Assembly (NCBI GenBank): GCA_947165825.1
Contig: CAMVBX010000001.1
Span: 1-45,673 of the forward strand
Direction of reading: 5' to 3'
DNA length: 45,673 bases
DNA from: an uncultured Clostridia bacterium
GTDB taxonomy: Bacteria; Bacillota; Clostridia; Oscillospirales; Oscillospiraceae
The notes beneath the pieces were generated by a model that saw only the letters and a list, made by a program, of their open reading frames with translations, did no database searches and was not told the DNA's origin. Shown here in pieces: positions 3,353-44,099 of this stretch. The first letter of the stretch is position 1. Each line of letters begins with the position of its first letter. Position numbers and translations under genes: made by a program.

Positions 3353-3354
3353 AC

Positions 3355-19462: not shown

Positions 19463-19505
19463 AAGCCGTTTTTTTCCAAGAAACTGGAAGGAACGGCTTT
19501 TCTAT
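19463..19505 (+). terminator. Weak terminator candidate after the response regulator
   Basis: Stem aagccgtt / aacggctt around a long, partly paired loop, followed by a T-rich tctatt. Confidence 0.35.
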
Positions 19506-20541: not shown

Positions 20542-20548
20542 TCCGTTT

Positions 20549-25174: not shown

Positions 25175-25339
25175 ATGCTGGAACTGCGGAAGAACGGGAA
25201 AGGGACTGATCGGGAGCCGGAAAAGGTGGCGCTGGATCTCAACGATCTGGATCTGGTAACGGGATCCGGCGATCCCTTTGAAAATATCCCCCGGGTACCG
25301 GAAAAGGAGATCGATCCCGAGCTCCGGAACGATGCCTGA
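25175..25339 (+). CDS. Small GS-leader peptide A2 (54 aa; predicted 23-aa core GDPFENIPRVPEKEIDPELRNDA)
   Basis: An internal ATG of the listed 84-aa ORF lies 8 nt after an AAGGAGG that overlaps the A1 stop. The leader is ...LDLNDLDLVTGS. The core is 16/23 identical to A1. Confidence 0.75.
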   Translation: MLELRKNGKGTDREPEKVALDLNDLDLVTGSGDPFENIPRVPEKEIDPELRNDA

Positions 25340-26708
25340 ACGGCGGGAGCTGACCGGGCGGACCGGGATCTGCGTTCTTGCGGCGATCCTGCTCCTGGCG
25401 CTTCTCTCCATCTCTTCCCCCGCTCCGGCTGCAGCCGCCGGGGAGACGGCGTATATCGTGAAGATCAAGGCGTCCGATGCCCCGTTCACCGTTGTCGGGG
25501 AAGGGGAGATGCGGCGTCTGGACCGGGCCGGGCTCCTGGAATGGGCGGAGCCCGATGGGGAAGCTCAGCTGCTGGGCACCCTGTCCCCCTACTATGCGGA
25601 TGAACAGTGGAACCTGGATATGATCGGCGCGGAGGCTGCCTTCCGGCAAAACTGTCTTGGGCAGGGGATCCGGGTGGGCGTCCTGGATTCCGGCGTGAAT
25701 CCCCATCCGGACTTCGGGGACCGTCTGCTGCCGGGACATAACTACGTCCAGGACGCCGAGGATCCGGAGGACACCTCGGATTCCTACGGCCATGGCACCC
25801 GCATCGCGGGCCTCGTCGCCGCTGCCGGCGAAGCGGGATATATCGGCACCGCCCCCGGAGCGGAGATCGTACCCATCAAGGTAACGGATGGAAAATCCGT
25901 CAAGGTCAGCGTCATTTGCGAGGCGATCTACGGGGCGATCGACGACTTCGGCTGCCGCGTTCTGAACTTGAGCATGGGCGTGCGGACAGACTATCAGTCC
26001 CTGCGGGATGCCGTGGCCTATGCGGAAGCCAGGGGCGTCGTGGTGGTTTCCGCGGCGGGCAACAGCGGCACCTCCGCCATGTACTACCCCGCCGGGTACG
26101 AAACGGTCATCGGCATCGGAGCGGTGGACTGCAACAGCGTGCTGTATTACCACTCCGATCACAATGAAAGCGTTTTTCTGACCGCCCCGGGGGTGGATGT
26201 GCGCAGCACGGCCTCCCGCGGCGGCTATACCGCCTCTACAGGCACCAGCTTCGCGGTGCCCCAGGTATCCGGCGCGGCGGCGGTGCTGCTGGGGATGGAC
26301 GGCGGTCTGAGCCCGGAGGAGATCCGGAGGATTCTGGCAGAAACCGCCAGTGATGCCGGAGACGAGGGCTATGACGAGTATTTCGGCTACGGGATCCTGA
26401 ACCTGGCGGGCTGCGTCTCCCGCCTGACGGAAGGGGAAGAACTGCCCGGGGAACCGTGCAGTTTCCTCCCGGAAACAGGTCCCGCCGCAGCGGTCCGCAG
26501 CAACGTGAACGAAGAAATCGATTGCACCTATCTGCTGGCCGAATATGACACGGACGGCGTCTGCCTGAGCGTGCAGACATGGCGTTTTACTCTCCCGGCC
26601 GGAGGAATTGCGGAGCTCACCCTTCCCGAGGAAAACGCGAACTACGGACAGTTTCTCTATGATTCGAAAACCCTGTGCCCCCTGGCCGAGGCGCGCAAAT
26701 CGCACTGA
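25332..26708 (+). CDS. Secreted subtilisin-like serine protease (peptidase S8)
   Basis: Its ATG overlaps the end of A2 (an 8-nt overlap). It has a signal peptide or anchor, ICVLAAILLLALLSISSPAPAAAA. The catalytic motifs are VGVLDSG (Asp), SYGHGTRIAG (His) and GTSFAVPQVSG (Ser). Confidence 0.9.
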   Translation: MPERRELTGRTGICVLAAILLLALLSISSPAPAAAAGETAYIVKIKASDAPFTVVGEGEMRRLDRAGLLEWAEPDGEAQLLGTLSPYYADEQWNLDMIGAEAAFRQNCLGQGIRVGVLDSGVNPHPDFGDRLLPGHNYVQDAEDPEDTSDSYGHGTRIAGLVAAAGEAGYIGTAPGAEIVPIKVTDGKSVKVSVICEAIYGAIDDFGCRVLNLSMGVRTDYQSLRDAVAYAEARGVVVVSAAGNSGTSAMYYPAGYETVIGIGAVDCNSVLYYHSDHNESVFLTAPGVDVRSTASRGGYTASTGTSFAVPQVSGAAAVLLGMDGGLSPEEIRRILAETASDAGDEGYDEYFGYGILNLAGCVSRLTEGEELPGEPCSFLPETGPAAAVRSNVNEEIDCTYLLAEYDTDGVCLSVQTWRFTLPAGGIAELTLPEENANYGQFLYDSKTLCPLAEARKSH

Positions 26709-26740
26709 ACACAATGCTTCACGAAATTGAGGGATCTGCC

Positions 26741-29700: not shown

Positions 29701-32700
29701 ACCTGCCGGGACGCTGACCGGGAAGAACGACGGGTATTACGTGGGTGAGGATGGGGCCGATCAATGGTCCGTCACCCTGGATCAGGATTACTATGAATTC
29801 TGGCAGTTCTACACGGATGTGGACAACCTGGTGCAGGTCCAGATCCCCGTATCCGACGCGGAGTATTTCGATACCGAAAAGGGCCTCTTCGCAGGGCTTG
29901 CCCCCACAGTCAGCGGGAACTATCAGATCTGGACGGTGCGGGAGAGCGTCCTGACCAACGAACTGGTGGACCTGATCGCTCTGCCGAAGGACAGCAGCCA
30001 TGTGCCGGTCTGGACTCTTGCCGGAAACGGAAATACGTATTCCGGCAGCGAATTCTTCTTCTTCGCCGGGGTACAGGCCTCGGACAATCTGGTTACCCTC
30101 CGGATGGACCGGACGGCGTCCGATCACGCCTGGTACTCCCTCCGGGGCACCGCCTGCTACTCCACCCTGAATCTGGAGAGCGGGAATGAGGCGGACGATC
30201 TCTATCCCGCAGAGTTTGCCCGGATCACTTCCGCCCTGTCCGGCACCGAGTCGGGCCGGGACGGCGATTTTACCCTGGAGCCCATGTACTTGCTGGGCGG
30301 CAGCATCGTGCGCTACATCGTGCATTTTAACGGCACCTCCATGATCCGGGAGGTCAAGGTGGCCCCGGCGAATGCCGCCACCGAAACGGTGAATTACCTG
30401 GATGCCGCGGGCGGCTATTCGCAGATCCGGGCCATCCCTGTGGATCTGGGGAACGTGAAGGTGGAGGGGTGGTCCCGTACAGGCGCGCATTTTTCCAATG
30501 TCAGCGTGACCCTGGCCAACTTCAACCCCGAAGTCATCACCGCCATGGAGATGAACGGCAAGACCCTCACCGTGAAAATCACGGTGGATCCGGGGCAGCC
30601 GTACATCTGGGAGGGCGCGCAATGCAGAGAGACCGTCACAGAGGTGACCCTCTGGTTCCAGAGCCAGCTCACCGGAGAGATCCACGGGATCTACTCCACC
30701 ACCCTGCAGGAGGGAGAGACGAGCCCCGGCCTCACCTGGAACCAGATGACGAATACCGCCACCCTGACCATCCGGAGATTCTCACCGGACGCGCCGGAAA
30801 AGTACACCTACGGCGATGTGATGATGCTCCAGCTCACCACCGATAAGAAAACCTCTGCAGGCGGGAGCGGCCTGATGGTCTATCAGCCCGTGTCCAGCGG
30901 CTATACCGTCATCACCGACCAGAACTATGTACCGGAAACCTATGAAGAGGATGTGGACATGTCCAGCATGCTGGATGCGGCCCTCTCCGAAGAAAACAAG
31001 ACCCGTTACAGCTTTGGTCAGTTCCCCTGGCTGGGAAACATCACCGGGGTCTTTGCCACCTTTTCCTATTTTGTCAGCTCCGGATTCAACAATACCGCGC
31101 AGATGATCCTGGACGATCTGCAGCTCATGGAGGATGGGGACGCGGAGCTCATGGCCGGCGTTCTCCCGCGCAAGGCGGCCATCAGTGCGGCAGTGGCCTT
31201 CAAGGAACTCCCCTACGGCGGCGTCCGCACCATGATTGCCGTGGCCGTATCCTTCGGCAATGCCGCCTATTCCAGACGGGCCAATCCCTATCAAGCGAGG
31301 GAAGTCGCGTCTACCTTCCTGAGCGGCATTACCAGCGGCAGCAGCGGAGACCTGCTCTATGGAGGCGGCCAATTCAACGGCGGCGAATCCCTGGTCCAAA
31401 GCGAGCTGGGCGGATCATACATCTACTTCACCATCTATGTGGGCCTCTATCTCGACTGGGGCTTCATTGAGAAAGCCGTGACCGACAGCGACGGTGAGAC
31501 GGAACAGAGCCACTTCGCCCTCTTCCTGGGCGCCGGGGGCTTCTACGGCATCAGCATGACCGGCGGCTATACGAAATACGTTTTCCCCTGGGGCGTTCCG
31601 GTGTATTTCAATATTGAGGCGAATATCGACCTGACGGTATTCCTGGGGTCTTCTGCGGATCCCCAAAAGACGCTGGAATCCTTCTACGAGACTTCAGACC
31701 ACAAGGGACAGGACTTCGCCTTCAATATGGAGATTTATGCAGATGCCGGGCTGAAGCTTACCATCGGTGTCGGCCTCTACAAGATCATAGGCGTCCGGGC
31801 ATCCGGCGGTGTCGGGGTCCAGGCCGGCCTGAGCCTGCGCATGGCGGACTGGTTCCCGGATCTGGAAGGGGCCGATACCCTCAGCGTCTCCACCGATGCC
31901 ACGTTCTCCGGTTCCGTTGACCTGATCGTGACCAGTATCGATCTCTGGAGCGCCTCCTGGCCGCTGCCCCTGGGCTATGGCTGGCTGCAGTATTTCCAGC
32001 AGATGCGCCGGGCGAATATCCTGATCCATTTTATCAACGAGGAGATCAACGAGCACAGAGGTTCTCAGGCAGCCAGAGACGAATGTCGCCGGCTGGCCGA
32101 CGAGCTGGGCGCCTATGTGGACGCCTATCAGGGTACCGGCAAGGCGCTGAAAAAGCTGGTGGACCACCTCAACGACTATGCCTATGATCATGGCATCATC
32201 CGGCCGGAGCACTGGGCCCGGGTCAATATGATTCGGCAGGGCGGCTTGCTGGGCAACATGGCGGAAAGCTACTATGCCTGGATGATGGAGGACGACGGGC
32301 AAAGCAGCCTCTTCCATACCCGGGACCATGTGGATACCCGCTGGGTGGCGGGGGAGGACGCCTCTCTTATGGCGGCCTTCGGCCCGGTGAGCACCGCAAA
32401 GCTTGTGGAGAATGCGGTCTCCCAGCCCGCGGCGCAGATCGCGGCCCTGGGGAACAACCGCTTCCTTGCGGTCTTCCTGGACGACGACGCAAGCCGGGAC
32501 CGCCAGCAGGCCGGCGTACTGAAATGGGCGGTTTACGATGCAAACACAAACGCATGGACGGCCCCGCAGACCGTACAGGATGACGGGACCGCGGACGGGC
32601 GTCCCAACCTCATCGACGGCGGGGACAAGCTGATCCTCTCCTGGTCCTCCATCCCGCAGGAAAAGTACGCCGCGATGAAGCTGGAGGTCGCCAGGGAGCT

Positions 32701-35700
32701 GAACGTCGCAGATTACAATGAAGAAACTGAGGTCTACACCATCACCGACGACACGGCTGTGCTCCGCACCCTGGAGACGAACCCGGATCGGGTAATGAAC
32801 CTGATGGACATCTTCACCGCGGAGTTCAGCAAGAGCAGTTTCACCTTCGGCCCCATCACCCAGCTCACGGACGACGACTATTACGACGACGGGCCCCAGG
32901 CGGTGTACGACAGTGAGACCGGCGACTATGTCATCCTCTACTATAAGACCGCCCAGGATACGGAGGCCTATGCCGATGCGGAGGACCGGCTGCTGGATCT
33001 GGTAAACTCCAACGCGGATCCCAACCGGACCTACGGCGTCATGTGCTACATGCTCTACAACAATCAGACCGAGACTCCGGATACCAAGGGCCTTACCCAT
33101 GCCTCCGGCTGGGCGAGGGATTATCTCTTCCCCAACGAGACGGATCTGGCTCCGGCAGCGCAGGCCGCTTTCCTGGCAGCCTGGGGCGGTCAGCGTTTTC
33201 TGGCCTCCGCGATCAAGTCCGTCGGCCCGGACGGGAGAGTAATCCAGTCTGACGCGCCCATCGCGGACCTGACCGTCTGCAGCGGATATAACGGTCTTGC
33301 GGCCTATGCCTTCACGGTGGATATGGACTATAACGTGGACACCGCTGAGGACAAGGAGCTGTTTGTGCAGTTCTATCGCTTTGCCGACCATAAGACCTAT
33401 GTGCCGGTGAAGGTGGCGGGTGAGGCTGTGAAGGAAAAGCTGAACTCCGCTGTGCGTGACGCGAACAGAAGAACCATCGTTCCGGCCACGGTCACCGAGG
33501 CGGTGACGCCCGTGAACGTGGGACAGCCCAAGCTGATCCGCAACGAAGGCTCCACCTGGCTTTTCTGGCGGGAGGACGAGCGAGGCCTGCGCTACCTGAA
33601 CATCTCCGAGCTGCTCAACAAGAAGCTGGAGACCGGGCCGGGGGACGACGATTGGGTCTATGCCCTGCAGGATAACGGCACCTTTGCCACGGATCCCGAT
33701 ACCGGAAAGCCCTATGAGCCTGAAGCCCAATGGGTGGATTTCGGCTCCGCCATGACGGATGGGAAAATGACCATCACGGACTACCAGGTCGTCACGGACC
33801 GGGACGATAATCTCTACGTGGTCTGGACCGACCTTCATAGCTACGAAGTACAGGATGACATTCTGGAAACGACCATCTCCAACCCGGCGCAGGCCATCTA
33901 CGCCTCGGCCAAGATCAAGCAGACGAACAGCGACGTGAAAGAGGGAGAAGTGGACAGCATCGCCCGCTGGTCCAAGCCCTACCGGCTGACGAAGGACAAC
34001 TCCTCCAACGACGGCGTCACCATCGCCCTGGATGACAACGGCGGGCTGATCCTGCTGCACAACCAGTTCTTTATGGAGCTGGCGGACACCGAGGCTGAGA
34101 TCGCCTACATGCTCGCAAACCATCTGGCAGGGGCCTATCATGACGAGGAAAGCGGCAACGACTATTTCCTGGGCTATCCCTATTACCCCAGCGGCATGAG
34201 CCTGATGGTGACCCGCTGCGAACCCATCGGCTCCGTGGAGGCCACGACGTTCGTCTTTGACGACGTCACCCCCGTGGCGGGACAGACTGTGCAGGTCGCA
34301 GCGGCGGTGGAGAATGTGGGCCTGACCAACGCCAAGGGCTGCGAGGTCCGATTCTATGAGTACAGGAACGGCGTACAGGGAAGGTTGCTGCAGACTGCTT
34401 ACAGCGAAGAGGAATTCCAGGTCAACTCGGCCAGGCAGGTCGTATTCGACTGGACCATCCCGGCAGACGGACCCGAGGGCTTCTGCATCCAGGCAGTGGC
34501 CAGGGAGAAGAGGGCGGACGGCACCTGGTACGATCCGACAGAGACCTTCTCCGAGCCCTTCGTTCCGAAGGCGGAATATGCGCCGGAGCTGGTGAAATGC
34601 GTGCAGAGCGGAGACGGCTTCGACGTGGAGTACACCGTGACCAATACCGGAAACCTGGCCGCGCCTCAGGGCATGAAGGCCGACCTTGTCCTTGAGGGAC
34701 TTTACGGCGACCTGAAGGAACAATACGGCATGGATGACGACCTGCTGATCACGGAGGACATCTCCGGCCTGGCCCCCGGGGAGACCCGGACCGTTGCGAA
34801 GACCATCGTCCTCCCGGTCACCGTCTTCCGGTTCTGCGGCTATGACGCCGTGACCGTCGTGGTGCGGGATCAGTACGACGAGGCTGTGAAGTGCACGGAT
34901 CACAGCTTCATCACCCTGGATGCGCCGCTGAACCTGGAGCTCAACGGCGGCGCGGAGCTGGCGCTCATGAGCGGTGAGAAAAAGACCGCCGCGCTTCGCT
35001 TTGACTCCACCGGATTTATGGATATCAGCGGAAAGACGAAATACTCCGTGTCCGATCCCGCCGTCGCCTCCGTGGATGAAAACGGCGTTGTCACCGGTAT
35101 CAGCGAAGGTACCGCCACCCTGACGGCCACCCTGATGCCCAGCGGCCGTACCGTGGAGATCCGGGTGACGGTGAGCGGTACGGCGGAGCCCGGCAGCTCG
35201 GATGTACCGACGATTCGGGAGTACATGATCGGTCTGAGCGGACGCCTGGAGAACGGCACGGTGCAGACCGGCGCCAACAGCGCCATCCCGGGGAGCCGGG
35301 TCACGTTTACGCCGAAGCCGGAGGAGGGCTATACCGTCGGGACGGTCACCGTGACCAACCGGAACGGCATCCCGCTGGAGCTCATCGACAACGGGGACGG
35401 CACCTGGAGCTTCATCATGCCGGCGGAAAACGTGAGGATCGGTGTGGAATTTGTCCCGGCTGGCGCCCCGGCTGAGGAACCCCCGGCGCCGGATCAGCAG
35501 TTTGCGGATGTGCCCGCGGGGACCTGGTTCACCGACGCGGTGGCCTGGGCTGTGGCACAGGGGATCACCAACGGCACGGACGAGACGCATTTCAGCCCGG
35601 ATGTGCCCTGTACCCGGGCGCAGATGGTGACCTTCCTGTGGCGCGCGGCAGGCAAGCCCGAGCCTGCGGGAGGGGAGATGCCCTTCCAGGACGTGGCGAA

Positions 35701-36022
35701 GGGGAGCTACTATGAGAAGGCCGTCCTTTGGGCGGTGGAGCAGGGGATCACCCAGGGCGTGAGCGAGACGGAATTTGCGCCGGACGCCACCGTGACCAGA
35801 GCCCAGACCGTGACCTTCCTGTACCGCTTCGCAGGGGCGCATACGAAGGCGGCCGCTGTCTTTGCGGATGTGCCTGTGGATTCCTGGTATGCCGAGGCGG
35901 TGACCTGGGCGGTGGAAAACAAGATCACCAGAGGCACGGGCGACACCACCTTCTCCCCGGACGACGCCTGTGTGCGGGCCCAGATCGTCACCTTCCTTTA
36001 CCGCTATCCGGGAGAGGGATAA
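26741..36022 (+). CDS. Giant (3093 aa) SLH-anchored cell-surface protein with Calx-beta, CARDB-like and Big_2 domains
   Basis: Signal peptide MRKPFVRILAALLIVLMLFQLSGESIAYA. Calx-beta-like segments include SSQDGSAVAGDDYGGVGAKLWFSMGITSRTVELPV near 27.8-28.0 kb. CARDB-like segments lie near 34.2-34.9 kb. A Big_2 segment (YSVSDPAVASVDENGVVTGISEGTATLTA) lies near 35.0 kb. Three C-terminal SLH repeats follow. Most of the central roughly 2000 aa has no domain I recognise. Confidence 0.9.
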   Translation: MRKPFVRILAALLIVLMLFQLSGESIAYAADTLDKALNPEKQIELIVPQSLQDGENYFFIREDTFTISEKSSEKLYIPIQRTGDIDAATDVTLKVIDMSAHFGVNYEARICDEKTAPVTILNGIAVIDLFLYADEQIEAEPIDEDELGTILTENGGSGDILAPDGEVVGSISAVPLDENGNPIPPETGGTASAAPAAEPGDEGESVPNASAEAEAEETALAEDGEPEEEPLSPPRSLMAARNAFTGTQSDRQQLAGGDTFGALSPAQRLEAAQEGQQRTDAEIAAENYPGREYALHFEAGEIVKFLEITPKYSEAADGDSTIILMLKDLPDNAVVPEDFNMRSVVITDEDEHEEVVISLTQETIRAEDGKAVITVTRTGRINDLVGVMLSSQDGSAVAGDDYGGVGAKLWFSMGITSRTVELPVGHGAEEKDFTVTIAPLPTMPDVKIGLASARVIIPAGEKADDGELMASTDLYGDMWNLRDRTRKITGKVNYDSDTTVSYRTSLDKCETQYISLYTDRDYAWDGIHVVYDYHTWYSKGKVDVELNNGDGNWVRVFRKDWGDLDEKWKREQIADAYFGQLEGPWIISIDNYTYEVHNGFRDSHSDIVVTSVQPIKRQFTIKMLAPEALSFEGMTEAEVLARYEQVMLDSGLDTSVTLYTGDNFSISRLSSPEMARLVGIEAVRSDGMTYRIANITGSNGTATVELNPRLINLLAGYGYIEWKESKGSYSGTIQVRPVFDYVKSVTVQVRDSAYGTLCLEDEPPLRWEFDSDQMINVCMGANSRHNVDWQGETDNAGNDYYTFTATGDDPYVSIDMPYANASKLVWVKVRARNLCGADAIELFGKFNDTGPEGTSCVHIDLEQDKEWHTYLVNIPESNIQTVNAYKGATISTTTWKGKANWLRLDPVWNENSSARSGDQIQIDYVAFFSDKEKAESYHNGTAAGTTLTAGRHTFHYGDKLVFLPNLDPAWAGRMRALGISSESRRNGPAGTLTGKNDGYYVGEDGADQWSVTLDQDYYEFWQFYTDVDNLVQVQIPVSDAEYFDTEKGLFAGLAPTVSGNYQIWTVRESVLTNELVDLIALPKDSSHVPVWTLAGNGNTYSGSEFFFFAGVQASDNLVTLRMDRTASDHAWYSLRGTACYSTLNLESGNEADDLYPAEFARITSALSGTESGRDGDFTLEPMYLLGGSIVRYIVHFNGTSMIREVKVAPANAATETVNYLDAAGGYSQIRAIPVDLGNVKVEGWSRTGAHFSNVSVTLANFNPEVITAMEMNGKTLTVKITVDPGQPYIWEGAQCRETVTEVTLWFQSQLTGEIHGIYSTTLQEGETSPGLTWNQMTNTATLTIRRFSPDAPEKYTYGDVMMLQLTTDKKTSAGGSGLMVYQPVSSGYTVITDQNYVPETYEEDVDMSSMLDAALSEENKTRYSFGQFPWLGNITGVFATFSYFVSSGFNNTAQMILDDLQLMEDGDAELMAGVLPRKAAISAAVAFKELPYGGVRTMIAVAVSFGNAAYSRRANPYQAREVASTFLSGITSGSSGDLLYGGGQFNGGESLVQSELGGSYIYFTIYVGLYLDWGFIEKAVTDSDGETEQSHFALFLGAGGFYGISMTGGYTKYVFPWGVPVYFNIEANIDLTVFLGSSADPQKTLESFYETSDHKGQDFAFNMEIYADAGLKLTIGVGLYKIIGVRASGGVGVQAGLSLRMADWFPDLEGADTLSVSTDATFSGSVDLIVTSIDLWSASWPLPLGYGWLQYFQQMRRANILIHFINEEINEHRGSQAARDECRRLADELGAYVDAYQGTGKALKKLVDHLNDYAYDHGIIRPEHWARVNMIRQGGLLGNMAESYYAWMMEDDGQSSLFHTRDHVDTRWVAGEDASLMAAFGPVSTAKLVENAVSQPAAQIAALGNNRFLAVFLDDDASRDRQQAGVLKWAVYDANTNAWTAPQTVQDDGTADGRPNLIDGGDKLILSWSSIPQEKYAAMKLEVARELNVADYNEETEVYTITDDTAVLRTLETNPDRVMNLMDIFTAEFSKSSFTFGPITQLTDDDYYDDGPQAVYDSETGDYVILYYKTAQDTEAYADAEDRLLDLVNSNADPNRTYGVMCYMLYNNQTETPDTKGLTHASGWARDYLFPNETDLAPAAQAAFLAAWGGQRFLASAIKSVGPDGRVIQSDAPIADLTVCSGYNGLAAYAFTVDMDYNVDTAEDKELFVQFYRFADHKTYVPVKVAGEAVKEKLNSAVRDANRRTIVPATVTEAVTPVNVGQPKLIRNEGSTWLFWREDERGLRYLNISELLNKKLETGPGDDDWVYALQDNGTFATDPDTGKPYEPEAQWVDFGSAMTDGKMTITDYQVVTDRDDNLYVVWTDLHSYEVQDDILETTISNPAQAIYASAKIKQTNSDVKEGEVDSIARWSKPYRLTKDNSSNDGVTIALDDNGGLILLHNQFFMELADTEAEIAYMLANHLAGAYHDEESGNDYFLGYPYYPSGMSLMVTRCEPIGSVEATTFVFDDVTPVAGQTVQVAAAVENVGLTNAKGCEVRFYEYRNGVQGRLLQTAYSEEEFQVNSARQVVFDWTIPADGPEGFCIQAVAREKRADGTWYDPTETFSEPFVPKAEYAPELVKCVQSGDGFDVEYTVTNTGNLAAPQGMKADLVLEGLYGDLKEQYGMDDDLLITEDISGLAPGETRTVAKTIVLPVTVFRFCGYDAVTVVVRDQYDEAVKCTDHSFITLDAPLNLELNGGAELALMSGEKKTAALRFDSTGFMDISGKTKYSVSDPAVASVDENGVVTGISEGTATLTATLMPSGRTVEIRVTVSGTAEPGSSDVPTIREYMIGLSGRLENGTVQTGANSAIPGSRVTFTPKPEEGYTVGTVTVTNRNGIPLELIDNGDGTWSFIMPAENVRIGVEFVPAGAPAEEPPAPDQQFADVPAGTWFTDAVAWAVAQGITNGTDETHFSPDVPCTRAQMVTFLWRAAGKPEPAGGEMPFQDVAKGSYYEKAVLWAVEQGITQGVSETEFAPDATVTRAQTVTFLYRFAGAHTKAAAVFADVPVDSWYAEAVTWAVENKITRGTGDTTFSPDDACVRAQIVTFLYRYPGEG
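35501..36009 (+). other. Three tandem SLH (S-layer homology) repeats of the giant protein
   Basis: FADVPAGTWFTDAVAWAVAQGITNG..., FQDVAKGSYYEKAVLWAVEQGITQG... and FADVPVDSWYAEAVTWAVENKITRG..., each ending in TRAQ/VRAQ..VTFLYR. Confidence 0.85.
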
Positions 36023-36037
36023 AACAACAAAAAAACT

Positions 36038-36069
36038 GCCCGGATCCTCCGGAAATCGGGGATCCGGGC
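36038..36069 (+). terminator. Intergenic GC-rich hairpin (possible attenuating terminator; no T-tract)
   Basis: gcccggatcc / ggatccgggc forms a 10-bp stem with a 12-nt loop, 16 nt after the giant gene stop. It is preceded by an A-run and not followed by a T-run. Confidence 0.3.
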
Positions 36070-36094
36070 CATCGTATGAAACAGAGGAAGCGAC

Positions 36095-37240
36095 ATGAAA
36101 AAGAGAATCCTTTCCGCCGCGCTGAGCCTTCTGCTGATTCTGGGGCTGAACGGCGCATCTGCCGCCGGATCCGGGGAGCCCGGATTCTATGCCATGGACG
36201 CTGTGCAGGGAATCACCGTGGAGCCTCTGCTGGCGGAAGGCGGACCGGCGCGGGCAGAACTGGCCGATGTGGACGGAGATGGCCTGGAGGAGGTCTTCTG
36301 GCCCGGGTCCGCGGCGCTGCGGGTGACCGTGGCTGACTCCCGGGAAGAAAGCCAGTATCTCCTTCTGCTCCGGGAGACGGGGGGCGGGACCGTGTATTAT
36401 GCGGATCAGCAAACCGGCGGCGGACCGCTGACTTTCCTCATCCGGTTTTCTCTCCCGGACCGGCAGACGAAGCTGGAGCTTACGGTCAGCAGCGATGCGC
36501 CGGGCTTTGCCCCCCTGCGTGTCTCCCTGGCCTATACGCCTGCCGCTGCGGAGGACGTTCATCCTGCTGAACCGGAGGCGCCGACGCAGCCGACGCCCGG
36601 GCCAGACCCGGCGGGGGAGACCGGGGATCCCCCGGCACAGGGGGAAACCGAACGCCCCTGGCTGACCTGCACCCGGGATGGGCGCTGTCCCCTGACCGCC
36701 TTTTCAGACCTGGATCCGGAGGCATGGTACCATGACGGGATCCACTATGCGCTGGAGCGCGGGATCATGAACGGCTATGACGGCGGCCTGTTTTCCCCCG
36801 GCAGCGCCGCGTCCCGGGCCATGCTGGTGACGATCCTGTGGCGGATGGAAGGCAGCCCTTCCGCGAGCGATGCCATGCCCTTCGGCGACGTGGATCCGGG
36901 AGCCTGGTATGCGGAGGCGATCCGGTGGGCCGCCGGGGTGAAGCTCGTCGGCGGGTATGACCCGGAGACCTTCGGGCCCAACGATCCCGTTACCCGGGAG
37001 CAGTTCGCCGTGATCCTCTGGCGGTATATCCGGATGAAAGACCCGGGCAGGGAGGCTCCGGACCGCCCGCTGGAATTTGCCGATGCGGGGGAGGTTTCCG
37101 ACTGGGCCGACGAGGCTCTGCGCTGGATGACGGCGGAGGGGGTGCTGCGGGGAACGGAGGATCACCGCCTTGCCCCCGGGGAAACCGCGACCCGGGCGCA
37201 GATCGCCACGATGCTGATGCGCTGTGATCCTCTTGGATGA
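36095..37240 (+). CDS. Secreted SLH-domain protein (N-terminal domain unknown)
   Basis: Signal peptide MKKRILSAALSLLLILGLNGASA, a Pro-rich linker, and three C-terminal SLH repeats (FSDLDPEAWYHDGIHYALERGIMNG, FGDVDPGAWYAEAIRWAAG, FADAGEVSDWADEALRWM). Confidence 0.85.
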   Translation: MKKRILSAALSLLLILGLNGASAAGSGEPGFYAMDAVQGITVEPLLAEGGPARAELADVDGDGLEEVFWPGSAALRVTVADSREESQYLLLLRETGGGTVYYADQQTGGGPLTFLIRFSLPDRQTKLELTVSSDAPGFAPLRVSLAYTPAAAEDVHPAEPEAPTQPTPGPDPAGETGDPPAQGETERPWLTCTRDGRCPLTAFSDLDPEAWYHDGIHYALERGIMNGYDGGLFSPGSAASRAMLVTILWRMEGSPSASDAMPFGDVDPGAWYAEAIRWAAGVKLVGGYDPETFGPNDPVTREQFAVILWRYIRMKDPGREAPDRPLEFADAGEVSDWADEALRWMTAEGVLRGTEDHRLAPGETATRAQIATMLMRCDPLG

Positions 37241-37296
37241 ATCGGGCAGATCGCCCCGCTGTAAATATCGAAAGAACCGTTTTGGGAGGTATCGAC

Positions 37297-39432
37297 ATGA
37301 AACACAGAAAGCGTCTTTCTCTCCTGCTGGCCCTGATTCTGGCGCTGTCCCTCTTTTCCGGCCATGCCCTGGCGGCGGATGGGGAGACGGAAGCACCGCT
37401 GACCCGGGGAGAGTTTCTCACCGCGCTCTACGAAATGAGCGGCGATGCGGCTCCGGGGGAGAGCCAGACCGCGTTTGCGGATGTTCCGCCTGACGGGGCG
37501 TTTGCTCCGGCGATCCGCTGGGCTATGGACAGGGGCATCGTCAACGGCTACGGAAACGGCAGATTCGGACCGGATGATCCGGTTACCCTGGAACAAATGG
37601 CCGTGATGCTGTATCGCAGCGCCCTGGCCCTGGATCAGGCGCCCCGGGGCGATTGGCTGTTTCCCCTGGGCTTCCTGGACGCAGACGAGATCTCCCCTTG
37701 GGCGGACAAGGCTGTGCAGTGGGCGGTCATGAACCGGATCCTTTCCGGGACCGGTCAGCGTCTCATGCCGAAGGCGGCGGTGACGGAAGAACAGCTTGCT
37801 CCCATCCTGGAGGGCTGGACGGACTTTCTGGTCCCGGAAGGGGAGAGCAGAGGCACCGTGATCCTCTACACCAGCGACGTCCACTGCGGCATCGATAAAG
37901 GCTTCGGCTATGCCGGGCTCCAGGAGGTGCGGGACGCCCTGATCGCCCAGGGCTATGCGGTGCTCCTGGTGGACGACGGGGACAGCATCCAGGGCGAGCC
38001 GGTGGGGACGATGACGAAGGGAGAAGCGATCCTGGGGCTCATGAATCGGCTGGGCTACTCCGCGGCGATTCCCGGCAACCATGAGTTCGATTACGGCATG
38101 GAACAGTTCCTCTCCCTGGCGGGGATGGCGGATTTCGCGTACATCAGCTGCAATTTCACCTGCCGCGGGGAGCAGGTCTTCCGGCCTTATGTGATCCGGG
38201 AGCTGGGGGGAAAACGGATCGCCTTCGTGGGCGTCACCACCCCGCAGACCATCATTACCTCCACGCCCGGCTTTTTTCAGGATGAGACGGGGGAGTTTAT
38301 CTATGGATTCCTCCAGGATGAAACGGGGGAGGGGGTATATTCCGCCGTTCAGTCTGCCGCGGATGAGGCAAGAGCGGAAGGCGCTGATCACGTGATCCTC
38401 ATGGGGCATTTGGGGAACAGCCTGCAGAGCGCGCCATGGAACTATGCCGACGTGATCTCCCATACCCGGGGGATCGACGCCGTGCTGGACGGGCACAGCC
38501 ACGATGCCGACCAGGTGGTCATGAAGAATGCGGAGGGCGTGCCCACCCCCCGCTCCGCCTGCGGCACGAAACTGGCCAATATCGGCTGGTGCTTCATCGC
38601 GCCGGACGGGAAAGTCAGCACCGGTCTGTATACCTGGAGCGACAGCGTTCCCGCGCCGGAAAAGCTGGGGATCGACAATGAGATGGCCCGGGCTGTGGCG
38701 GAGGCCACCGAAGCGCTGGATCGGAAGCTGGGCGAGACGGTTGCCGTCAGCACGGTGGAGCTCACCATATATGACCCCGCAGCGACGGATGCCGGAGGCA
38801 AGCCGATCCGCATGATCCGGCGGGCGGAGACGAACCTGGGGGATCTGTGCGCGGACGCGTACCTTGACCAATCCGGCGCGGACATCGCCATTGCCGTCGG
38901 CGGCAGCATCCGGGCAAATCTTGCCGCGGGGGACATCACCCTGCGGGATATCCTGACCGTGCATCCCTTCGGAAACTATCTGTGCGTGGCGGAAGTGACC
39001 GGACAGCAGATCCTGGACGCGCTGGAATGGGGCGCGCGCATCGTTCCGGGGGAATGCGGCGGTTTCCTGCAGGTCTCCGGCCTGACCTATGAAATCCACA
39101 GCTATCTTCCCTCCCCCTGCCTGTCGGACGAGAATGGCATGTTCCTTCGCGTTGAGGGCGAGCGCCGGGTGAAGAATGTGCTGGTGGCAGGCGAGCCCAT
39201 CGACCTCTCCGGGACGTACACCCTGGCCGGATTGGATTATACGCTCAAGGAAAACGGCGACGGCTTTACGGTGTTCGACGGCGTGCCCGTCCTGCGGGAC
39301 GGGATTAAGCTGGATCATCAGGTGCTGATCGACTATATGGCCGGGACCCTCGGCGGAGTGGTGGGGGAAGCATACGCGGATCCCTGCGGCCAGGGCCGGA
39401 TCACGATCGTCGACAGTCCTGCGGAGCCATGA
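37297..39432 (+). CDS. SLH-anchored bifunctional metallophosphatase / 5'-nucleotidase (UshA family)
   Basis: Start trimmed to MKHRKRLS after a GGGAGG RBS. It has a signal peptide and two SLH repeats. The metallophosphatase motifs are YTSDVHCG, VDDGDSIQG and PGNHEFDYG, followed by a C-terminal 5'-nucleotidase substrate domain. Confidence 0.9.
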   Translation: MKHRKRLSLLLALILALSLFSGHALAADGETEAPLTRGEFLTALYEMSGDAAPGESQTAFADVPPDGAFAPAIRWAMDRGIVNGYGNGRFGPDDPVTLEQMAVMLYRSALALDQAPRGDWLFPLGFLDADEISPWADKAVQWAVMNRILSGTGQRLMPKAAVTEEQLAPILEGWTDFLVPEGESRGTVILYTSDVHCGIDKGFGYAGLQEVRDALIAQGYAVLLVDDGDSIQGEPVGTMTKGEAILGLMNRLGYSAAIPGNHEFDYGMEQFLSLAGMADFAYISCNFTCRGEQVFRPYVIRELGGKRIAFVGVTTPQTIITSTPGFFQDETGEFIYGFLQDETGEGVYSAVQSAADEARAEGADHVILMGHLGNSLQSAPWNYADVISHTRGIDAVLDGHSHDADQVVMKNAEGVPTPRSACGTKLANIGWCFIAPDGKVSTGLYTWSDSVPAPEKLGIDNEMARAVAEATEALDRKLGETVAVSTVELTIYDPAATDAGGKPIRMIRRAETNLGDLCADAYLDQSGADIAIAVGGSIRANLAAGDITLRDILTVHPFGNYLCVAEVTGQQILDALEWGARIVPGECGGFLQVSGLTYEIHSYLPSPCLSDENGMFLRVEGERRVKNVLVAGEPIDLSGTYTLAGLDYTLKENGDGFTVFDGVPVLRDGIKLDHQVLIDYMAGTLGGVVGEAYADPCGQGRITIVDSPAEP

Positions 39433-39496
39433 GCCGCTCCGGAGGGAGGTCCCTGCTCCCCGCCGGAGAAAAGGGGAAGAAAGGGAGAAGGACCGC

Positions 39497-40141
39497 ATGA
39501 AGCTTTCTCACGATGCTTCGGGATTCGTCCTGCTGAGCGAGGCTGTGCCGGAGATCATTCAGGAGATCCGGTATGCCTCGGCGGAGAATTTCATCGGGAC
39601 CCGGATCGACGGATATTGGGAACCCGCCGCCCTCCTGACCCGGGAGGCCGCGGATGCGCTGCGGGCGGTGAGCGCAGACCTGGCAGTCAGGGGACTGCGG
39701 CTGAAGGTCTTCGATGCCTATCGCCCCCGGCAGGCCGTGGACCATTTTCTCCGTTGGGCGAAGGACCCGGCGGATACCCGCAGGAAAGCGGAGTATTATC
39801 CGGAGCTGAAAAAGGAAACGCTGATCCCATTGGGGTATATCGCAGAAGAATCCGCCCACAGCCGGGGCAGCGCCGTGGACCTGACGCTCTGCGGCGGGAT
39901 GGGGCGGGAGCTGGACATGGGCAGCCCCTTCGATCGGTTCGGCCCGATCAGCCGCCCGGACTATCCGGGGATCACGGCGGAGCAGCGGACCAATCGCCTG
40001 CTGCTGCGGGAGGCCATGCGGGCCCGGGGCTTTTTGCCGCTGGAGGAGGAATGGTGGCATTTCACCCTGGCGGCTGAGCCTTATCCCGATACCTGCTTCA
40101 CCTTCCCGGTGAGCCGCTCCGTGTTGTCCGGAGGCCTGTGA
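39497..40141 (+). CDS. D-alanyl-D-alanine dipeptidase (VanX/DdpX, peptidase M15D)
   Basis: Motifs VFDAYRP, SAHSRGSAVDLTL and EEEWWHFTL are characteristic of VanX-type dipeptidases. Confidence 0.85.
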   Translation: MKLSHDASGFVLLSEAVPEIIQEIRYASAENFIGTRIDGYWEPAALLTREAADALRAVSADLAVRGLRLKVFDAYRPRQAVDHFLRWAKDPADTRRKAEYYPELKKETLIPLGYIAEESAHSRGSAVDLTLCGGMGRELDMGSPFDRFGPISRPDYPGITAEQRTNRLLLREAMRARGFLPLEEEWWHFTLAAEPYPDTCFTFPVSRSVLSGGL

Positions 40142-40165
40142 ATTCTCCGGGAAGAGCCGACTGTC

Positions 40166-40205
40166 TTGGACATTTATTGGACACGGACGGATATTCTGCT
40201 ATACT
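40166..40205 (+). promoter_or_regulatory. Direct-repeat (TTGGACA-N4-TTGGACA) promoter, copy 2
   Basis: The 28 nt at 40166-40193 are identical to 19505-19532. The 3' heptamer lies 8 nt from tattct (40192-40197). Read as a sigma-70 promoter instead, TTGGAC (40177-40182), a 17-nt spacer and TATACT (40200-40205) also fit. It lies about 100 nt upstream of the STAS gene. Confidence 0.6.
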
Positions 40206-40304: not shown

Positions 40305-40601
40305 ATGACCATCAACAAAACCGGAAGCGGAAGCAAGCTGACCCTGGCCTTGGCGGGCCGTCTGGATACCGTTACCGCGCCAGAGCTGGAAAAGGAACTG
40401 CAGGATTCCCTGGAGGGGATCGATACGCTCATTTTCGATTTCTCCGGTCTGGAGTACGTCTCCTCCGCCGGGCTGCGTGTGCTGCTTTCGGCGCAGAAGA
40501 CCATGAACAAGCAGGGAGAAATGAAGCTTACTCATGTGAACGAAAGCATCATGGAAATTTTTGAGGTCACCGGCTTTACGGATATCCTGACCTTCGAATA
40601 A
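40305..40601 (+). CDS. STAS domain anti-sigma-factor antagonist (SpoIIAA/RsbV-like)
   Basis: 98 aa after an AAGGAGG RBS. The conserved phospho-Ser context FSGLEYVSSAGLRVLL is present, and the C-terminal MEIFEVTGF segment is typical of the family. Confidence 0.9.
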   Translation: MTINKTGSGSKLTLALAGRLDTVTAPELEKELQDSLEGIDTLIFDFSGLEYVSSAGLRVLLSAQKTMNKQGEMKLTHVNESIMEIFEVTGFTDILTFE

Positions 40602-40620: not shown

Positions 40621-41238
40621 ATGAAGACAGCAAGGATCAAAGTCACGACCCGGGGCGAAGGAATGGAAGAAGCCCTGGCGGCAACGGAGAAACTGGGGAC
40701 CGACAGCGGTCTCGCGCACAAGGAGCAGCTGCGGCTCCGCCTGTTGGCGGAGGAGCTGATCGGCCTGATGCGGGGCATTGCGGGCAGCGTGGAGGCCTGC
40801 TATCAGGCGGAGCAGGAGGAGCGGAGATTCCGCCTTTGCCTCAGCGCCGATGTTACGCTGGACAAGGAGATGCGCAAGCAGCTGCTGGCCGCCTCCTCCA
40901 GCGGGAAAAACGCGGCGGCCCGGGGATTCATGGGAAAACTCCGGGAAATGGTGGCCATCGTTGTGCTTCCAAAGAGCCAGAGTTCGCCCGGGGTGTCCAA
41001 TCTCTCTCTGGGTCTGATCAGCATGGGCAGCCCCAGAGGGTATGTTTCCGGCGCGGATACCTATAACTGGTCCATGAGCACCTATATGTCCGAGGTCAAA
41101 AGCAAGCGGGGAGAGAACGCGGAAGCCGACGAGGCCTGGGACGAACTGGAAAAGTCCATTGTGGCCAACCTGGCGGATGAGGTCACCGTACAGATCGTGG
41201 GGCACAACGCGGAGATCACCATTACCAAGGCTTTCTAA
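40621..41238 (+). CDS. Hypothetical protein (205 aa) inside the partner-switching module
   Basis: GGAGGGAG RBS and codon usage like its neighbours. No family recognised. Confidence 0.6.
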   Translation: MKTARIKVTTRGEGMEEALAATEKLGTDSGLAHKEQLRLRLLAEELIGLMRGIAGSVEACYQAEQEERRFRLCLSADVTLDKEMRKQLLAASSSGKNAAARGFMGKLREMVAIVVLPKSQSSPGVSNLSLGLISMGSPRGYVSGADTYNWSMSTYMSEVKSKRGENAEADEAWDELEKSIVANLADEVTVQIVGHNAEITITKAF

Positions 41239-41304: not shown

Positions 41305-42873
41305 ATGGAAAAAAAGCGGATTACGATCCCGCTCTCCGGGCGGATCGACTCCAATAACGCAGCAGCGGTGGAACAGGAGATCCTGGCGAAGCTGGGGGCG
41401 GAGCGGGATATCGCCCTGATCCTGGACGCGGAGAAGCTGGAGTATATTTCCAGCGCGGGCTTGCGGGTGATCCTGCACCTGAAAAAGATGATCCCGGAGC
41501 TGAGCATCCGAAACGTCAGCTCCGAGGTTTATGAGATCCTGGAGATGACCGGGTTCACCGAGATGATGACGGTGGAAAAGGCCTACCGGGTCGTCTCGGT
41601 GGAGGGCTGCGAGGAGATCGGGCGCGGCGCAAACGGCACGATCTACCGGATCGACCGGGATAATGTGGTCAAGGTTTACAACAATGCCGACGCTCTGGCG
41701 GATATCCAGCATGAGCGGGAGGTGGCAAAGCTTGCCCTGATCCTGGGCATCCCCACGGCCATTTCTTACGACGTGGTCCGGGTGGGGGAGAGCTATGGCT
41801 CTGTTTTCGAGCTGCTGAACGCCAGGTCCTTCTCCAAGATCATCGCAACGGAGCCGGAGAAGCTGGACTGGTGCGTGGAGGAATACGTAAAGCTGCTGAA
41901 GACGATCCACGGCACGCTGGTTCCGGCGGGCAAGCTGCCGGATATGCGGGAAACGGCCCTGGACTGGGCCCGGTTTATGCAGGACTATCTGCCCCGGGAG
42001 GCCGGAGCGAAGCTGCTGGCCCTGGTGGAGGCGGTGCCCAGGGACGATCATATGCTCCACGGGGACTATCATACGAAGAATCTGGAGCTGCAGAATGACG
42101 AGGTCCTGCTCATCGATATGGACACCCTGGCGGTGGGCCATCCCATCTTTGAACTGGCGAGCATCTACAACTCCTTCGTCGGGTATTCCGAGCTGAAGCC
42201 GGAAACGATCCTGGCGTTCCAGGGCTTCGACCAGGAAACCGGCCGGACCTTCTGGCACAAGGCGCTTTCCGCCTATCTGGGCACGAACTGCCCCGCGAAG
42301 CTGCGGGAGGTGGAGGACAAAGCCCGCATCATCGGGTATACCCGCATGATCCGCCGCTCCATCCGGCGCAAGGGATTGGAGACGGAGCAGGGCAGAGCGG
42401 AGATCGAGCTGTGGAAGCGGGAGCTTCTGGAGCTGCTGGAACGGACGGACAAGCTGACTTTCTCCCGCAATGAGCTGGAGCTTGAAGCCGTCGACGAGAA
42501 CCTGGCGCAGGTGCAGACCTTCGTGGATGAGCGTCTGGAGGCGGCGGACTGTCCGCCGAAGGCGCAGATGCAGATCGGCGTGGCGGTGGAGGAGATCTTC
42601 GTGAATATCGCCCACTATGCCTATGCGCCGGATAAGGGCAGCGCCGCGGTGCGCGTGGAAGTCAGCGATGATCCCGTTACGGTGTCCATCACCTTCATCG
42701 ACCAGGGTATGCCCTATGATCCCTTGGCCAGGACCGATCCGGATATATCGCTCCCGGTCAGCGAGCGGGACGTCGGCGGGCTGGGGGTCTTCCTGACCAA
42801 ACAGCTCATGGACGACGTGACCTATTCCTATCGGGACGGACGGAATATCCTGACCCTGAAAAAGAAGCTGTGA
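41305..42873 (+). CDS. Triple-fusion regulator: STAS - APH/choline-kinase-like kinase - GHKL anti-sigma kinase (SpoIIAB-like)
   Basis: N-terminal STAS with EKLEYISSAGLRVILHL. The central kinase fold has GRGANGTIYRI, VVKVY, LHGDYHTKNL and LLIDMD. The C-terminal HATPase has AVEEIFVNIAHYAY, IDQGMPYDP and VGGLGVFLTKQLMD. Confidence 0.85.
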   Translation: MEKKRITIPLSGRIDSNNAAAVEQEILAKLGAERDIALILDAEKLEYISSAGLRVILHLKKMIPELSIRNVSSEVYEILEMTGFTEMMTVEKAYRVVSVEGCEEIGRGANGTIYRIDRDNVVKVYNNADALADIQHEREVAKLALILGIPTAISYDVVRVGESYGSVFELLNARSFSKIIATEPEKLDWCVEEYVKLLKTIHGTLVPAGKLPDMRETALDWARFMQDYLPREAGAKLLALVEAVPRDDHMLHGDYHTKNLELQNDEVLLIDMDTLAVGHPIFELASIYNSFVGYSELKPETILAFQGFDQETGRTFWHKALSAYLGTNCPAKLREVEDKARIIGYTRMIRRSIRRKGLETEQGRAEIELWKRELLELLERTDKLTFSRNELELEAVDENLAQVQTFVDERLEAADCPPKAQMQIGVAVEEIFVNIAHYAYAPDKGSAAVRVEVSDDPVTVSITFIDQGMPYDPLARTDPDISLPVSERDVGGLGVFLTKQLMDDVTYSYRDGRNILTLKKKL

Positions 42874-44099
42874 GCGCATTTCCAAAGCTGCAGTTTGACA
42901 CCCGGACGAAAAAGCCGAAGCTCTTCCTGCTTCTGCTTCTGGCGGGGATCGCCGGGCTCGCGGTCTTGCTCCTGTCCCTGGGGGGGACGGAACGCAGCGC
43001 CGTTCCCATCTGCGGGATAACGGCAGCCTTCTGCCTGGCGGCATTCTTCATGCTCCTCTGGGCCTGGCGGGAGCAGCATCGGTATAATCCCTATTCCTAC
43101 AATACGATCTATTACATGGGCTTTGCCCTGTTTGCCCTTTTTGTGCTGGCGACGAATGCGGTGCTGGTCAGCCGGATGCTGCGCTGGCCTGAGCTGTACC
43201 CGGCGGATGCCGTCATGCGTATGCTGCTGGATTCCGCAAAGCAATACATGCTCATTTCCAGCCCTTTCCTTCTGCTTTTCTCTGCGGCGCTGGTGGTATC
43301 CAATCTCTCCCTGATCCGGCATGAGGGAAGGCGGCTGGTGAACCTTCTGGGGATCATTCTGGCTTTCCTGCTGGTGGGCGGTCTGGCCTTCCTGTTCATC
43401 TTTGATTATGCCGTGTCCGGAAGCCTGCAGGAGGTGATGATCCACGATCTGATCACCAACCTCTTTGCCGCCGTGTACCTGTATTTTGAGTGCATGCTGC
43501 TGGGCATCATCATCGCGGACGCGGTGGTGATCCGCTATGAACCGGAGCCGGACAAGGATTTCATCATTATCCTCGGCTGCGGCATCCGCAGCGACGGTAC
43601 GCCCTCGCCCCTTCTGCGGGGGCGGATCGATCGGGCTCTGGATTTTGCGAAAAAACAGGAGGCGGAGACCGGAAAAGCGCCGGTATTCGTCCCCTCCGGC
43701 GGCCAGGGGCCTGATGAGCCGTGCGCGGAGAGCGCCGCCATGAAGCGGTATCTGCTGGAACAGGGCGTCCCGGAGGAACGGATCCTGGAAGAGAACCGGT
43801 CCACGGATACCTTTGAGAACATGAAATTTTCCAAGGAGATCATCCTGGCGGCAAATCCGGAGGGAAAGGTCGCCTTTTCCACCACGAATTACCACGTGTT
43901 CCGCGGCGGCCTCAAGGCCCGCCGGGTGAAAATGCGGGCGGTGGGCATGGGCGCCAGGACAAAATGGTATTTCTGGCCCAACGCTGCGGTGCGGGAATTC
44001 GTGGGCCTGCTGACGGAGCACCGGGGGAAGCAGGCGCTGATCCTGGGGAGCATGGTCGTGTTCTACACCGTGCTGACGCTGCTGGCGTATCGGCGCTGA
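42870..44099 (+). CDS. DUF218 (YdcF/SanA/ElyC-like) membrane protein
   Basis: GTG start overlapping the upstream stop (GTGA). Five to six TM helices are followed by a DUF218 core: FIIILGCGIRSDGTPSPLLRGRIDRAL...PSGGQG...ESAAMKRYL...STDTFENM...TTNYHVFR. Confidence 0.8.
   Translation: MSAFPKLQFDTRTKKPKLFLLLLLAGIAGLAVLLLSLGGTERSAVPICGITAAFCLAAFFMLLWAWREQHRYNPYSYNTIYYMGFALFALFVLATNAVLVSRMLRWPELYPADAVMRMLLDSAKQYMLISSPFLLLFSAALVVSNLSLIRHEGRRLVNLLGIILAFLLVGGLAFLFIFDYAVSGSLQEVMIHDLITNLFAAVYLYFECMLLGIIIADAVVIRYEPEPDKDFIIILGCGIRSDGTPSPLLRGRIDRALDFAKKQEAETGKAPVFVPSGGQGPDEPCAESAAMKRYLLEQGVPEERILEENRSTDTFENMKFSKEIILAANPEGKVAFSTTNYHVFRGGLKARRVKMRAVGMGARTKWYFWPNAAVREFVGLLTEHRGKQALILGSMVVFYTVLTLLAYRR

Follow-up and report, generated by a model that had tools for sequence, protein, structure and literature searches.

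Why do the same 28 nucleotides stand twice in one genome, in the same orientation and 20.6 kb apart, and do they tie together the genes that follow them? The window, by which we mean the whole stretch of 45,673 nt that was analyzed, comes from contig CAMVBX010000001.1 of an uncultured Clostridia bacterium of the Oscillospiraceae (assembly GCA_947165825.1). Its GC content is 0.49 to 0.55 at 1001-4000, versus about 0.62 in the remainder. The repeat, TTGGACATTTATTGGACACGGACGGATA, occurs exactly at 19505-19532 and at 40166-40193, on the + strand in both places, and nowhere else in the window, where no third match was found at up to 3 mismatches; 100 shuffles yielded 0 chance matches. An exact second copy at this distance, reported in an earlier note made from the letters of this DNA, is thus confirmed in its coordinates.

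The identity of the two copies ends abruptly upstream, at the edge of a heptamer that opens the repeat. Downstream of the 28-mer the likeness fades, with TAGACTG in copy 1 and TATTCTG in copy 2. A repeat finder lengthens the pair (its family D9) to 31 identical positions out of 33, the extra matches being the T, A, C, and T of a -10-like hexamer plus a G, and the flanks of both copies outside the 33-nt pair gave no alignment, which agrees with the earlier statement that similarity fades past the 28-nt block. The paired-heptamer core is likewise present in 2 copies only in the window, where the earlier note had noticed no further pair. A weak core match on the - strand (19974-19991, 2 mismatches, within the peptide gene described below) is at chance level, since a search with 3 mismatches found 3 cores where 2.19 were expected.

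Both copies can be divided into the same parts, and copy 2 has one further reading:

19505-19536, + strand: box copy 1, which fits the family consensus
19505-19511 and 19516-19522, + strand: the two heptamers TTGGACA of copy 1, with the spacer TTTA between them
19523-19530, + strand: 8-nt linker of copy 1, CGGACGGA
19531-19536, + strand: -10-like hexamer TAGACT of copy 1, with a predicted transcription start near 19543
40166-40205, + strand: box copy 2, with heptamers at 40166-40172 and 40177-40183
40184-40191, + strand: linker of copy 2, CGGACGGA
40192-40197, + strand: -10-like hexamer TATTCT of copy 2, at the family position
ending at 40205, + strand: overlapping second reading of copy 2 from a pattern scan, TGGACA, 16 nt, TGcTATACT

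The heptamer resembles a -35 consensus with one extra G. Direct heptamer repeats with an 11-bp period are present in both copies and in 49 unique instances from related loci that were found by their regulator (see below). In SARP promoters described in the literature, the spacing of the direct repeats is 11 or 22 bp and the -10 follows the 3' repeat at a distance of 8 bp; the center of the afs box is at -29.5, overlying a poor -35 (PMC10936776). The same 8 bp separate the 3' heptamer from TAGACT at 19531 and from TATTCT at 40192. With the -10 placed at -12 to -7, the heptamer pair of the window covers -38 to -21, and its center falls at -29.5. The two family-position -10 hexamers of the window are weak and lack the TG that is found in many relatives. 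Two other promoter types were considered and rejected: a sigma-54 site, because on inspection of the sequence the TTGG/TTGC spacing is one off, and the box as the -35 of an alternative sigma factor, because the heptamers lie 9 or 20 nt from the conserved -10.

The earlier note had also read copy 2, in distinction from copy 1, as a canonical sigma-70 promoter. The pattern scan agrees in that it finds TGGACA, 16 nt, and TATACT with a TG at copy 2 and no sigma-70 -35/-10 pair at copy 1. This TATACT (40200-40205) lies off the family-conserved -10 position, which in copy 2 is occupied by TATTCT (40192-40197), and its position is not shared by other STAS promoters. Basal, activator-independent activity of copy 2 is possible on the strength of a valid consensus match that conservation does not back.

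Immediately upstream of copy 1 is a gene pair that could supply a protein to read the box:

17380-18633, + strand: sensor histidine kinase, with Pfam His_kinase PF06580 (LytS/YesM type) and HATPase_c
18630-19442, + strand: response regulator of 270 aa, with Pfam Response_reg and Trans_reg_C
19456-19506, + strand: terminator hairpin with U-run, -20.9 kcal/mol, z = -3.7

The kinase open reading frame runs from 17212, with M57 at 17380 as its likely start; other assemblies call a 417-aa product. About six membrane helices are predicted from hydropathy, N-terminal to the His_kinase domain. The start of the regulator gene overlaps the stop of the kinase gene (ATGA), and kinase orthologues (45 to 80% identity) adjoin the regulator in most related loci. 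The hairpin closes the kinase-regulator operon and abuts box copy 1, and in relatives the sequence '...cggcTTTTTTA' likewise stands directly 5' of the box.

The phospho-acceptor pocket of the receiver domain is intact: D8, D53, and T81 are invariant across homologues, and K101 is nearly so. A receiver of this kind joined to Trans_reg_C, and encoded next to a kinase, gives the regulator the composition of the OmpR/PhoB class. The AF2 model (pLDDT 79.6) has full-length OmpR/PhoB regulators as its top structural matches; the fold search with this model returned generic OmpR/PhoB matches, among which SARP and OmpR were inseparable. For the DNA-binding half, the best solved relative is the SARP EmbR (2fez, E=1.5e-3), in an alignment that reaches the start of the BTAD. 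The tail of about 50 aa after the winged helix resembles a BTAD start and is modeled with low confidence, and a Pfam BTAD was undetected in the regulator even at E = 5. JGI labels homologues 'two-component SAPR family response regulator'. With only a BTAD stub, the regulator may or may not belong to the SARP family proper, but its working resemblance to SARPs is strong. Its receiver domain is nearest to LytR/BtsR-type receivers, which is consistent with the PF06580 kinase. The union of such a receiver with a winged-helix, SARP-like output, and not with LytTR, has the look of a swapped output domain. The regulator matches more than 2,400 database proteins at E <= 1e-20, and the literature searched yielded no characterized member of this family.

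To ask whether the box accompanies the regulator in other genomes, we used loci that were found by protein and not by box. Regulator protein homology alone retrieved 80 metagenome loci (45 to 99% identity), and 71 of them, those with at least 200 nt past the regulator stop codon, were counted; a box was scored if it lay on the strand of the regulator gene, no more than 260 nt past the stop codon, with at most 2 mismatches. The box followed the regulator stop in 42 of the 71 loci, compared with 10 matches per 995,540 positions elsewhere in the same loci, counts that overstate the number of independent lineages somewhat because the metagenome loci are partly redundant. Several of the 10 background matches precede the kinase gene or divergent neighbors. 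In 8 loci whose regulator is at least 62% identical, no box lies directly 3' of the gene, and some of these have a box elsewhere in the locus. The phylogenetic footprinting that had been proposed as a check on the box is therefore positive.

An information profile of the 49 unique instances shows which positions are held. Near-invariant positions are both heptamers, the T that follows heptamer 1, and, in the -10, the TA...T. The rest of the N4 spacer is weakly constrained (TTTA, TCCT, TTCT, TTTG, TTTT, TCAG), and linker positions 19-23 are unconserved, with a slight TG preference at positions 24-25. Three loci with more distant regulators, about 55% identical (L153, L155, and L160), keep the same 7+4+7+8+TAnnnT frame with other heptamers, namely, TGTGACA, TTGGATG/ATGGATA, and ATGGATA, respectively. 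Their recognition helices, a part that is otherwise conserved, carry substitutions of R183 to H/Y and of Q188 to Y. Such covariation of heptamer and recognition helix, seen in three lineages only, may represent a specificity code of the regulator family. Taken as an association, the linkage of box and regulator supports a putative binding site that is tied to this regulator family, although a different conserved factor might be what binds there.

The core was also followed beyond these loci. In a species-representative set with one genome per species, the exact 18-mer TTGGACATTTATTGGACA was present in 98 stretches, where about 17 were expected (2 x 596e9 / 4^18), most of them, judging by record titles, in ruminant-gut Clostridia (Ruminococcus, Oscillospiraceae, Lachnospiraceae, and unclassified Clostridia). 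Several copies per genome are common, and some form divergent pairs with about 150 nt between them. Of 99 unique exact 18-mers, 61 are followed by a TAnnnT hexamer whose first base is exactly 9 nt past the box, with every other offset represented 10 times or fewer, and a TG often stands directly before this hexamer. STAS genes lie behind the 18-mer box in at least 7 independent loci. Other genes found there include homologues of the peptide and the HlyD-like protein of the window, the kinase-regulator pair itself, and genes for a GAF-ABC ATPase, a HAMP-SpoIIE-HATPase_c_2 protein, an L,D-transpeptidase-like (YkuD-like) protein, an MscS channel, and lipoproteins. This gene content points to an envelope and partner-switching regulon that may comprise at least nine promoters per genome elsewhere. 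In L020, L039, L027, L059, L098, and other loci, boxes, partly as divergent pairs, also precede an alpha/beta hydrolase gene.

The 18-mer has a second kind of context in alpha- and gammaproteobacterial genomes. There it lies just 3' of tRNA-Arg, tRNA-Glu, and tRNA-Val genes, usually after TATA, and just upstream of integrase-like open reading frames (L019, L024, L035, L079, L085, L092, L040, and L012); in the first six of these loci the box is 36 to 38 nt from the tRNA 3' end. This context is unlike that of the Clostridia promoters, and these 18-mers possibly mark the edge of a family of integrated elements.

Behind copy 1, the window continues with a leader, a peptide gene, exporters, and envelope genes:

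19556-19782, + strand: structured leader insert, with two exact GACCCATGTCCCGTTCCGGGACATGGGC copies at 19556-19583 and 19755-19782
19822-20109, + strand: precursor peptide of 95 aa with double-glycine leader MSEPGSIYELSADQLEEVSGG, the first gene behind copy 1
20122-20541, + strand: short HlyD-like membrane protein (weak match to TIGR03794)
20384-22726, + strand: ABC exporter with C39 peptidase domain (TIGR03796, 904 bits, above cutoff)
22742-24931, + strand: second ABC exporter (TIGR03797, 727 bits, above cutoff)
25278-40141, + strand: envelope genes between the two boxes (Pfam)
39497-40141, + strand: VanX-like M15 D-Ala-D-Ala dipeptidase, the last gene before copy 2

The leader that separates the peptide gene from box copy 1 contains two copies, 199 nt apart, of the 28-nt repeat GACCCATGTCCCGTTCCGGGACATGGGC, which includes a palindrome, and this leader folds far better than its shuffles (z = -6.5). 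In L104, the orthologous leader has no GACCCATGTCCCGTTCCGGGACATGGGC repeat and is some 200 nt shorter. The insert may have arisen as a small inserted element, or it may add a second layer of regulation; no Rfam families were found in the window. The precursor peptide has a well-conserved 74-aa core (RAMxSEAGRRHHYVxARAFLxQxDWEKFVWIE) and matched no Pfam or NCBIfam family at threshold, and at least 14 related loci have a homologue of it behind the box. Both ABC exporters are of the NHLP type. The envelope genes encode an S8 subtilase, a 3115-aa SLH/Calx-beta/Ig-like surface protein, a 381-aa SLH protein, and an SLH 5'-nucleotidase. In the region 35501-37222, the 3' end of the gene for the 3115-aa protein carries three tandem repeats of about 180 nt, and the two genes after it contain related 33-nt segments; all of these correspond to SLH domains (repeat families D1 and D2).

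Four genes follow copy 2:

40305-40601, + strand: STAS protein (Pfam/NCBIfam)
40621-41238, + strand: conserved, soluble protein of 205 aa
41305-42873, + strand: STAS-APH-HATPase_c_2 fusion (Pfam/NCBIfam)
42870-44099, + strand: DUF218 membrane protein (Pfam/NCBIfam)

The STAS and 205-aa genes stand immediately behind the box in many genomes. Neither Pfam nor NCBIfam has a match to the 205-aa protein. In a profile comparison, its N-terminal 72 residues gave a weak alignment to the beginning of HATPase_c_2 domains (hhalign probability 10.7%) and lacked the conserved Asn, so that the protein stays without an assignment; it may be a degenerate partner of the anti-sigma-like kind. No sigma factor domain was detected by Pfam or NCBIfam in any open reading frame of the cluster. 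No significant terminator was found between the M15 gene and copy 2, so that read-through from the upstream operon is possible.

Do the two operons belong together? The earlier note had placed the peptide and surface-protein operon and the STAS-kinase operon in one putative regulon, and related genomes speak for this placement. Five loci (L065, L106, L087, L036, and L143) carry the kinase, regulator, box, STAS protein, 205-aa protein, peptide, HlyD-like protein, and ABC genes in one run, with both gene sets behind one box. Two others, L104 (regulator 91% identical) and L142, resemble the window in that their box is followed by peptide, HlyD-like, and ABC genes. The operons of the window are thus halves of a gene set that shares one box elsewhere, which supports the idea of a single regulon.

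The perfect identity of the two copies is another matter. It had been taken as a sign of a shared protein-binding site rather than of a duplicated segment, and only part of that argument stands. A binding site is favored by the box behind the regulator in 42 of 71 loci; the exclusion of duplication is not, because spacer and linker are otherwise variable. Two independent boxes would agree at the 11 spacer and linker positions with P = 4.7e-5. Among box pairs from the same locus elsewhere, 0 of 39 have linkers that match at 8 of 8 positions, and same-locus linkers are more alike than random pairs (4.05 versus 2.70 of 8). Even in L104, the closest relative, the orthologous copy-1 linker differs at 2 of 8 positions. 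Identity over 28 nt at unconstrained positions thus indicates that a short promoter cassette may recently have been copied or homogenized, and we infer that recent duplication or gene conversion of this cassette would add to selection on the heptamers and the -10.

Close relatives offer a view of the same region. Among contigs with an identical regulator or STAS protein, neither box varies. Two strain or species variants, L187 (1-300) and L188, are 100% identical to the window from copy 2 through the STAS operon and lack the M15 gene. The end of their 5'-nucleotidase gene has visibly diverged from that of the window (39250-40170 region compared), and their homology to the window is lost some 20 nt 5' of the box, a pattern suggestive of recombination beside copy 2.

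Starting from a repeat whose conservation, fixed distance to the -10, and linkage to regulator orthologues are direct observations, we consider it probable that the 28-mer is a docking site and core promoter for the adjacent regulator, linking both operons. Each copy would be a compact activator-dependent promoter, with heptamers 11 bp apart, an 8-nt linker, and a weak -10. The membrane kinase would phosphorylate the regulator encoded at 18630-19442, which would bind the two heptamers as a head-to-tail dimer centered near -29.5, over the -35 region, and recruit RNA polymerase with the housekeeping sigma factor in the manner of SARPs and PhoB. Copy 1 would then drive the peptide and ABC exporter genes and probably the surface-protein genes downstream, and copy 2 would drive the STAS, 205-aa, STAS-APH-kinase, and DUF218 operon, so that one two-component system would control both gene sets. 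One copy may have derived recently from the other, or both may have been homogenized. A self-reinforcing peptide-signaling loop is plausible, given that peptide and exporter are both encoded behind the box. Binding of the regulator to the box, activation, the peptide as signal, and the history of duplication are all read from sequence comparison and are meant in this conditional sense.

Activation is not the only use to which a dimer at this place could be put. The same regulator might be a repressor that sits over the -35 of a housekeeping promoter and blocks polymerase, as would fit the overlap of the box with the -35 position and the good sigma-70 match of copy 2, in which heptamer 2 serves as the -35. 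However, the conserved -10 lies 8 nt from the box and leaves no space for a normal -35, which is the activator-dependent pattern of SARP and PhoB promoters; copy 1 has no sigma-70 pair of any kind, and the position of TATACT is unconserved in other STAS promoters. We regard repression as improbable.

A different reader of the box, either an alternative sigma factor or the output of the STAS/kinase module, would make copy 2 autoregulatory. The cluster contains no sigma factor gene, and a tandem 7+4+7 arrangement with a housekeeping-type, often TG-extended -10 is unlike the -35/-10 motif of a sigma factor. Moreover, the loci that have the box directly after the regulator (42 of 71) include some without a nearby STAS gene, and the heptamer shifts along with the recognition helix of the regulator. 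A reader of this kind could draw on the autoregulation that is typical of partner-switching operons, on the box ahead of STAS genes in many genomes, and on the absence of a family assignment for the 205-aa protein, but we find it unlikely in view of these points.

That the 28-mers are merely remnants of a segmental duplication or the attL and attR of a 20.6-kb element, with no regulatory role, is very improbable: direct repeats do flank a block of surface-protein genes, identity at unconstrained positions does speak of common descent, and the gene content of strain variants does differ right beside copy 2, but an integrated island with att repeats was rejected, as there is no integrase among the annotated open reading frames and no tRNA gene, GC is flat (0.57 to 0.66 across 19-41 kb), the same promoter-like core precedes genes at the same -10 distance in dozens of other genomes, and L187 keeps copy 2 and differs only by the missing M15 gene.

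With the box taken as a probable docking site of the adjacent regulator, a wider and distinctly more tentative proposal can be made, one that we would not yet put at even chances. The box would serve as operator in a circuit that is widespread among Clostridia of the rumen and gut. In this circuit, a LytS-type kinase and a receiver-SARP hybrid would sense a self-exported double-glycine signal and activate three sets of genes: those for the signal and its exporter, those of the envelope, and those of a partner-switching module that lacks a sigma factor. If this is true, the envelope set would comprise SLH proteins and a D-Ala-D-Ala dipeptidase and, elsewhere, an L,D-transpeptidase, an MscS channel, and ABC systems; the output of a partner-switching module that lacks a sigma factor would be something new; and SARP-style activation would operate under phosphorelay control outside the actinomycetes. 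The geometry of SARP promoters would then not be confined to actinomycete antibiotic clusters. The putative operator TTGGACA-N4-TTGGACA-N8-TAnnnT assigns a testable target to a large regulator family and permits prediction of regulons from metagenome-assembled genomes of uncultured rumen and gut Clostridia. By joining double-glycine export, surface-protein genes, and a STAS/kinase module, the hypothesis also provides a model for cell-cell or envelope signaling.

How does this arrangement compare with known systems? The targets of SARPs (the Streptomyces afs box of AfsR and the sites of ActII-ORF4, DnrI, and PimR) have the same 11-bp heptamer repeats, the same 8 bp to the -10, a center near -29.5 where the -35 is missing, and a reader with an OmpR-type winged helix. 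SARP heptamers are of TCGAG-type sequence, in contrast to TTGGACA here. Unlike in SARPs, the DNA-binding domain is fused here to a phospho-receiver, paired with a membrane kinase, and followed by a BTAD stub; the host belongs to a Clostridia lineage and is not an actinomycete; and the targets are genes for a secreted peptide, exporters, the envelope, and STAS/kinase proteins rather than antibiotic clusters.

The pho box is 18 bp long and consists of two direct repeats of 7 bp around an A/T-rich spacer of 4 bp; it lies immediately 5' of the -10 in place of the -35, and the phosphorylated receiver-winged-helix regulator PhoB binds it as a tandem dimer. The box described here has the same 18-bp 7+4+7 layout, and the model of its presumed regulator matches PhoB-family structures. 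It differs from the PhoB system in its heptamer, in its PF06580 kinase, in the LytR/BtsR-like receiver, and in the SARP-like C-terminal tail.

A double-glycine precursor and a C39 ABC exporter lie behind the box of the regulator, in the same order in L104, L142, and L065 as in the window. As in the streptococcal ComCDE and BlpRH systems, they are encoded beside a polytopic kinase and its regulator, and a direct-repeat box before the peptide gene would amount to auto-induction wiring. The regulators of ComCDE and BlpRH are of the LytTR type and use 9-bp repeats about 21 bp apart. The present regulator has a winged helix, and its 7-bp repeats have an 11-bp period, which sets it outside the LytTR type; the conserved 74-aa core of the peptide is also large for a pheromone.

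The operon behind copy 2 resembles RsbV/RsbW modules in that it encodes a STAS protein along with a HATPase_c_2 serine-kinase domain, and in other genomes a HAMP-SpoIIE-HATPase_c_2 protein stands behind the box. Unlike in RsbV-RsbW-SigB, the cluster lacks a sigma factor gene, the kinase is part of a fusion with a further STAS domain and an APH-like domain, the -10 is of the housekeeping type, and transcription apparently comes from a two-component regulator and not from the module's own sigma factor.

A literature search for TTGGACA returned only primers and similar noise, and searches for COG3947/SAPR, for receiver-SARP proteins in Clostridia, and for Ruminococcus double-glycine or STAS systems found the system undescribed in the literature searched, the coverage of which is incomplete. 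As a kind, the tandem-repeat operator of a winged-helix regulator is already known. What is new is the combination: a kinase of the LytS type and, in Clostridia, a receiver-SARP-like regulator occur together with envelope genes, a double-glycine peptide and its exporter, and a partner-switching module that lacks a sigma factor.
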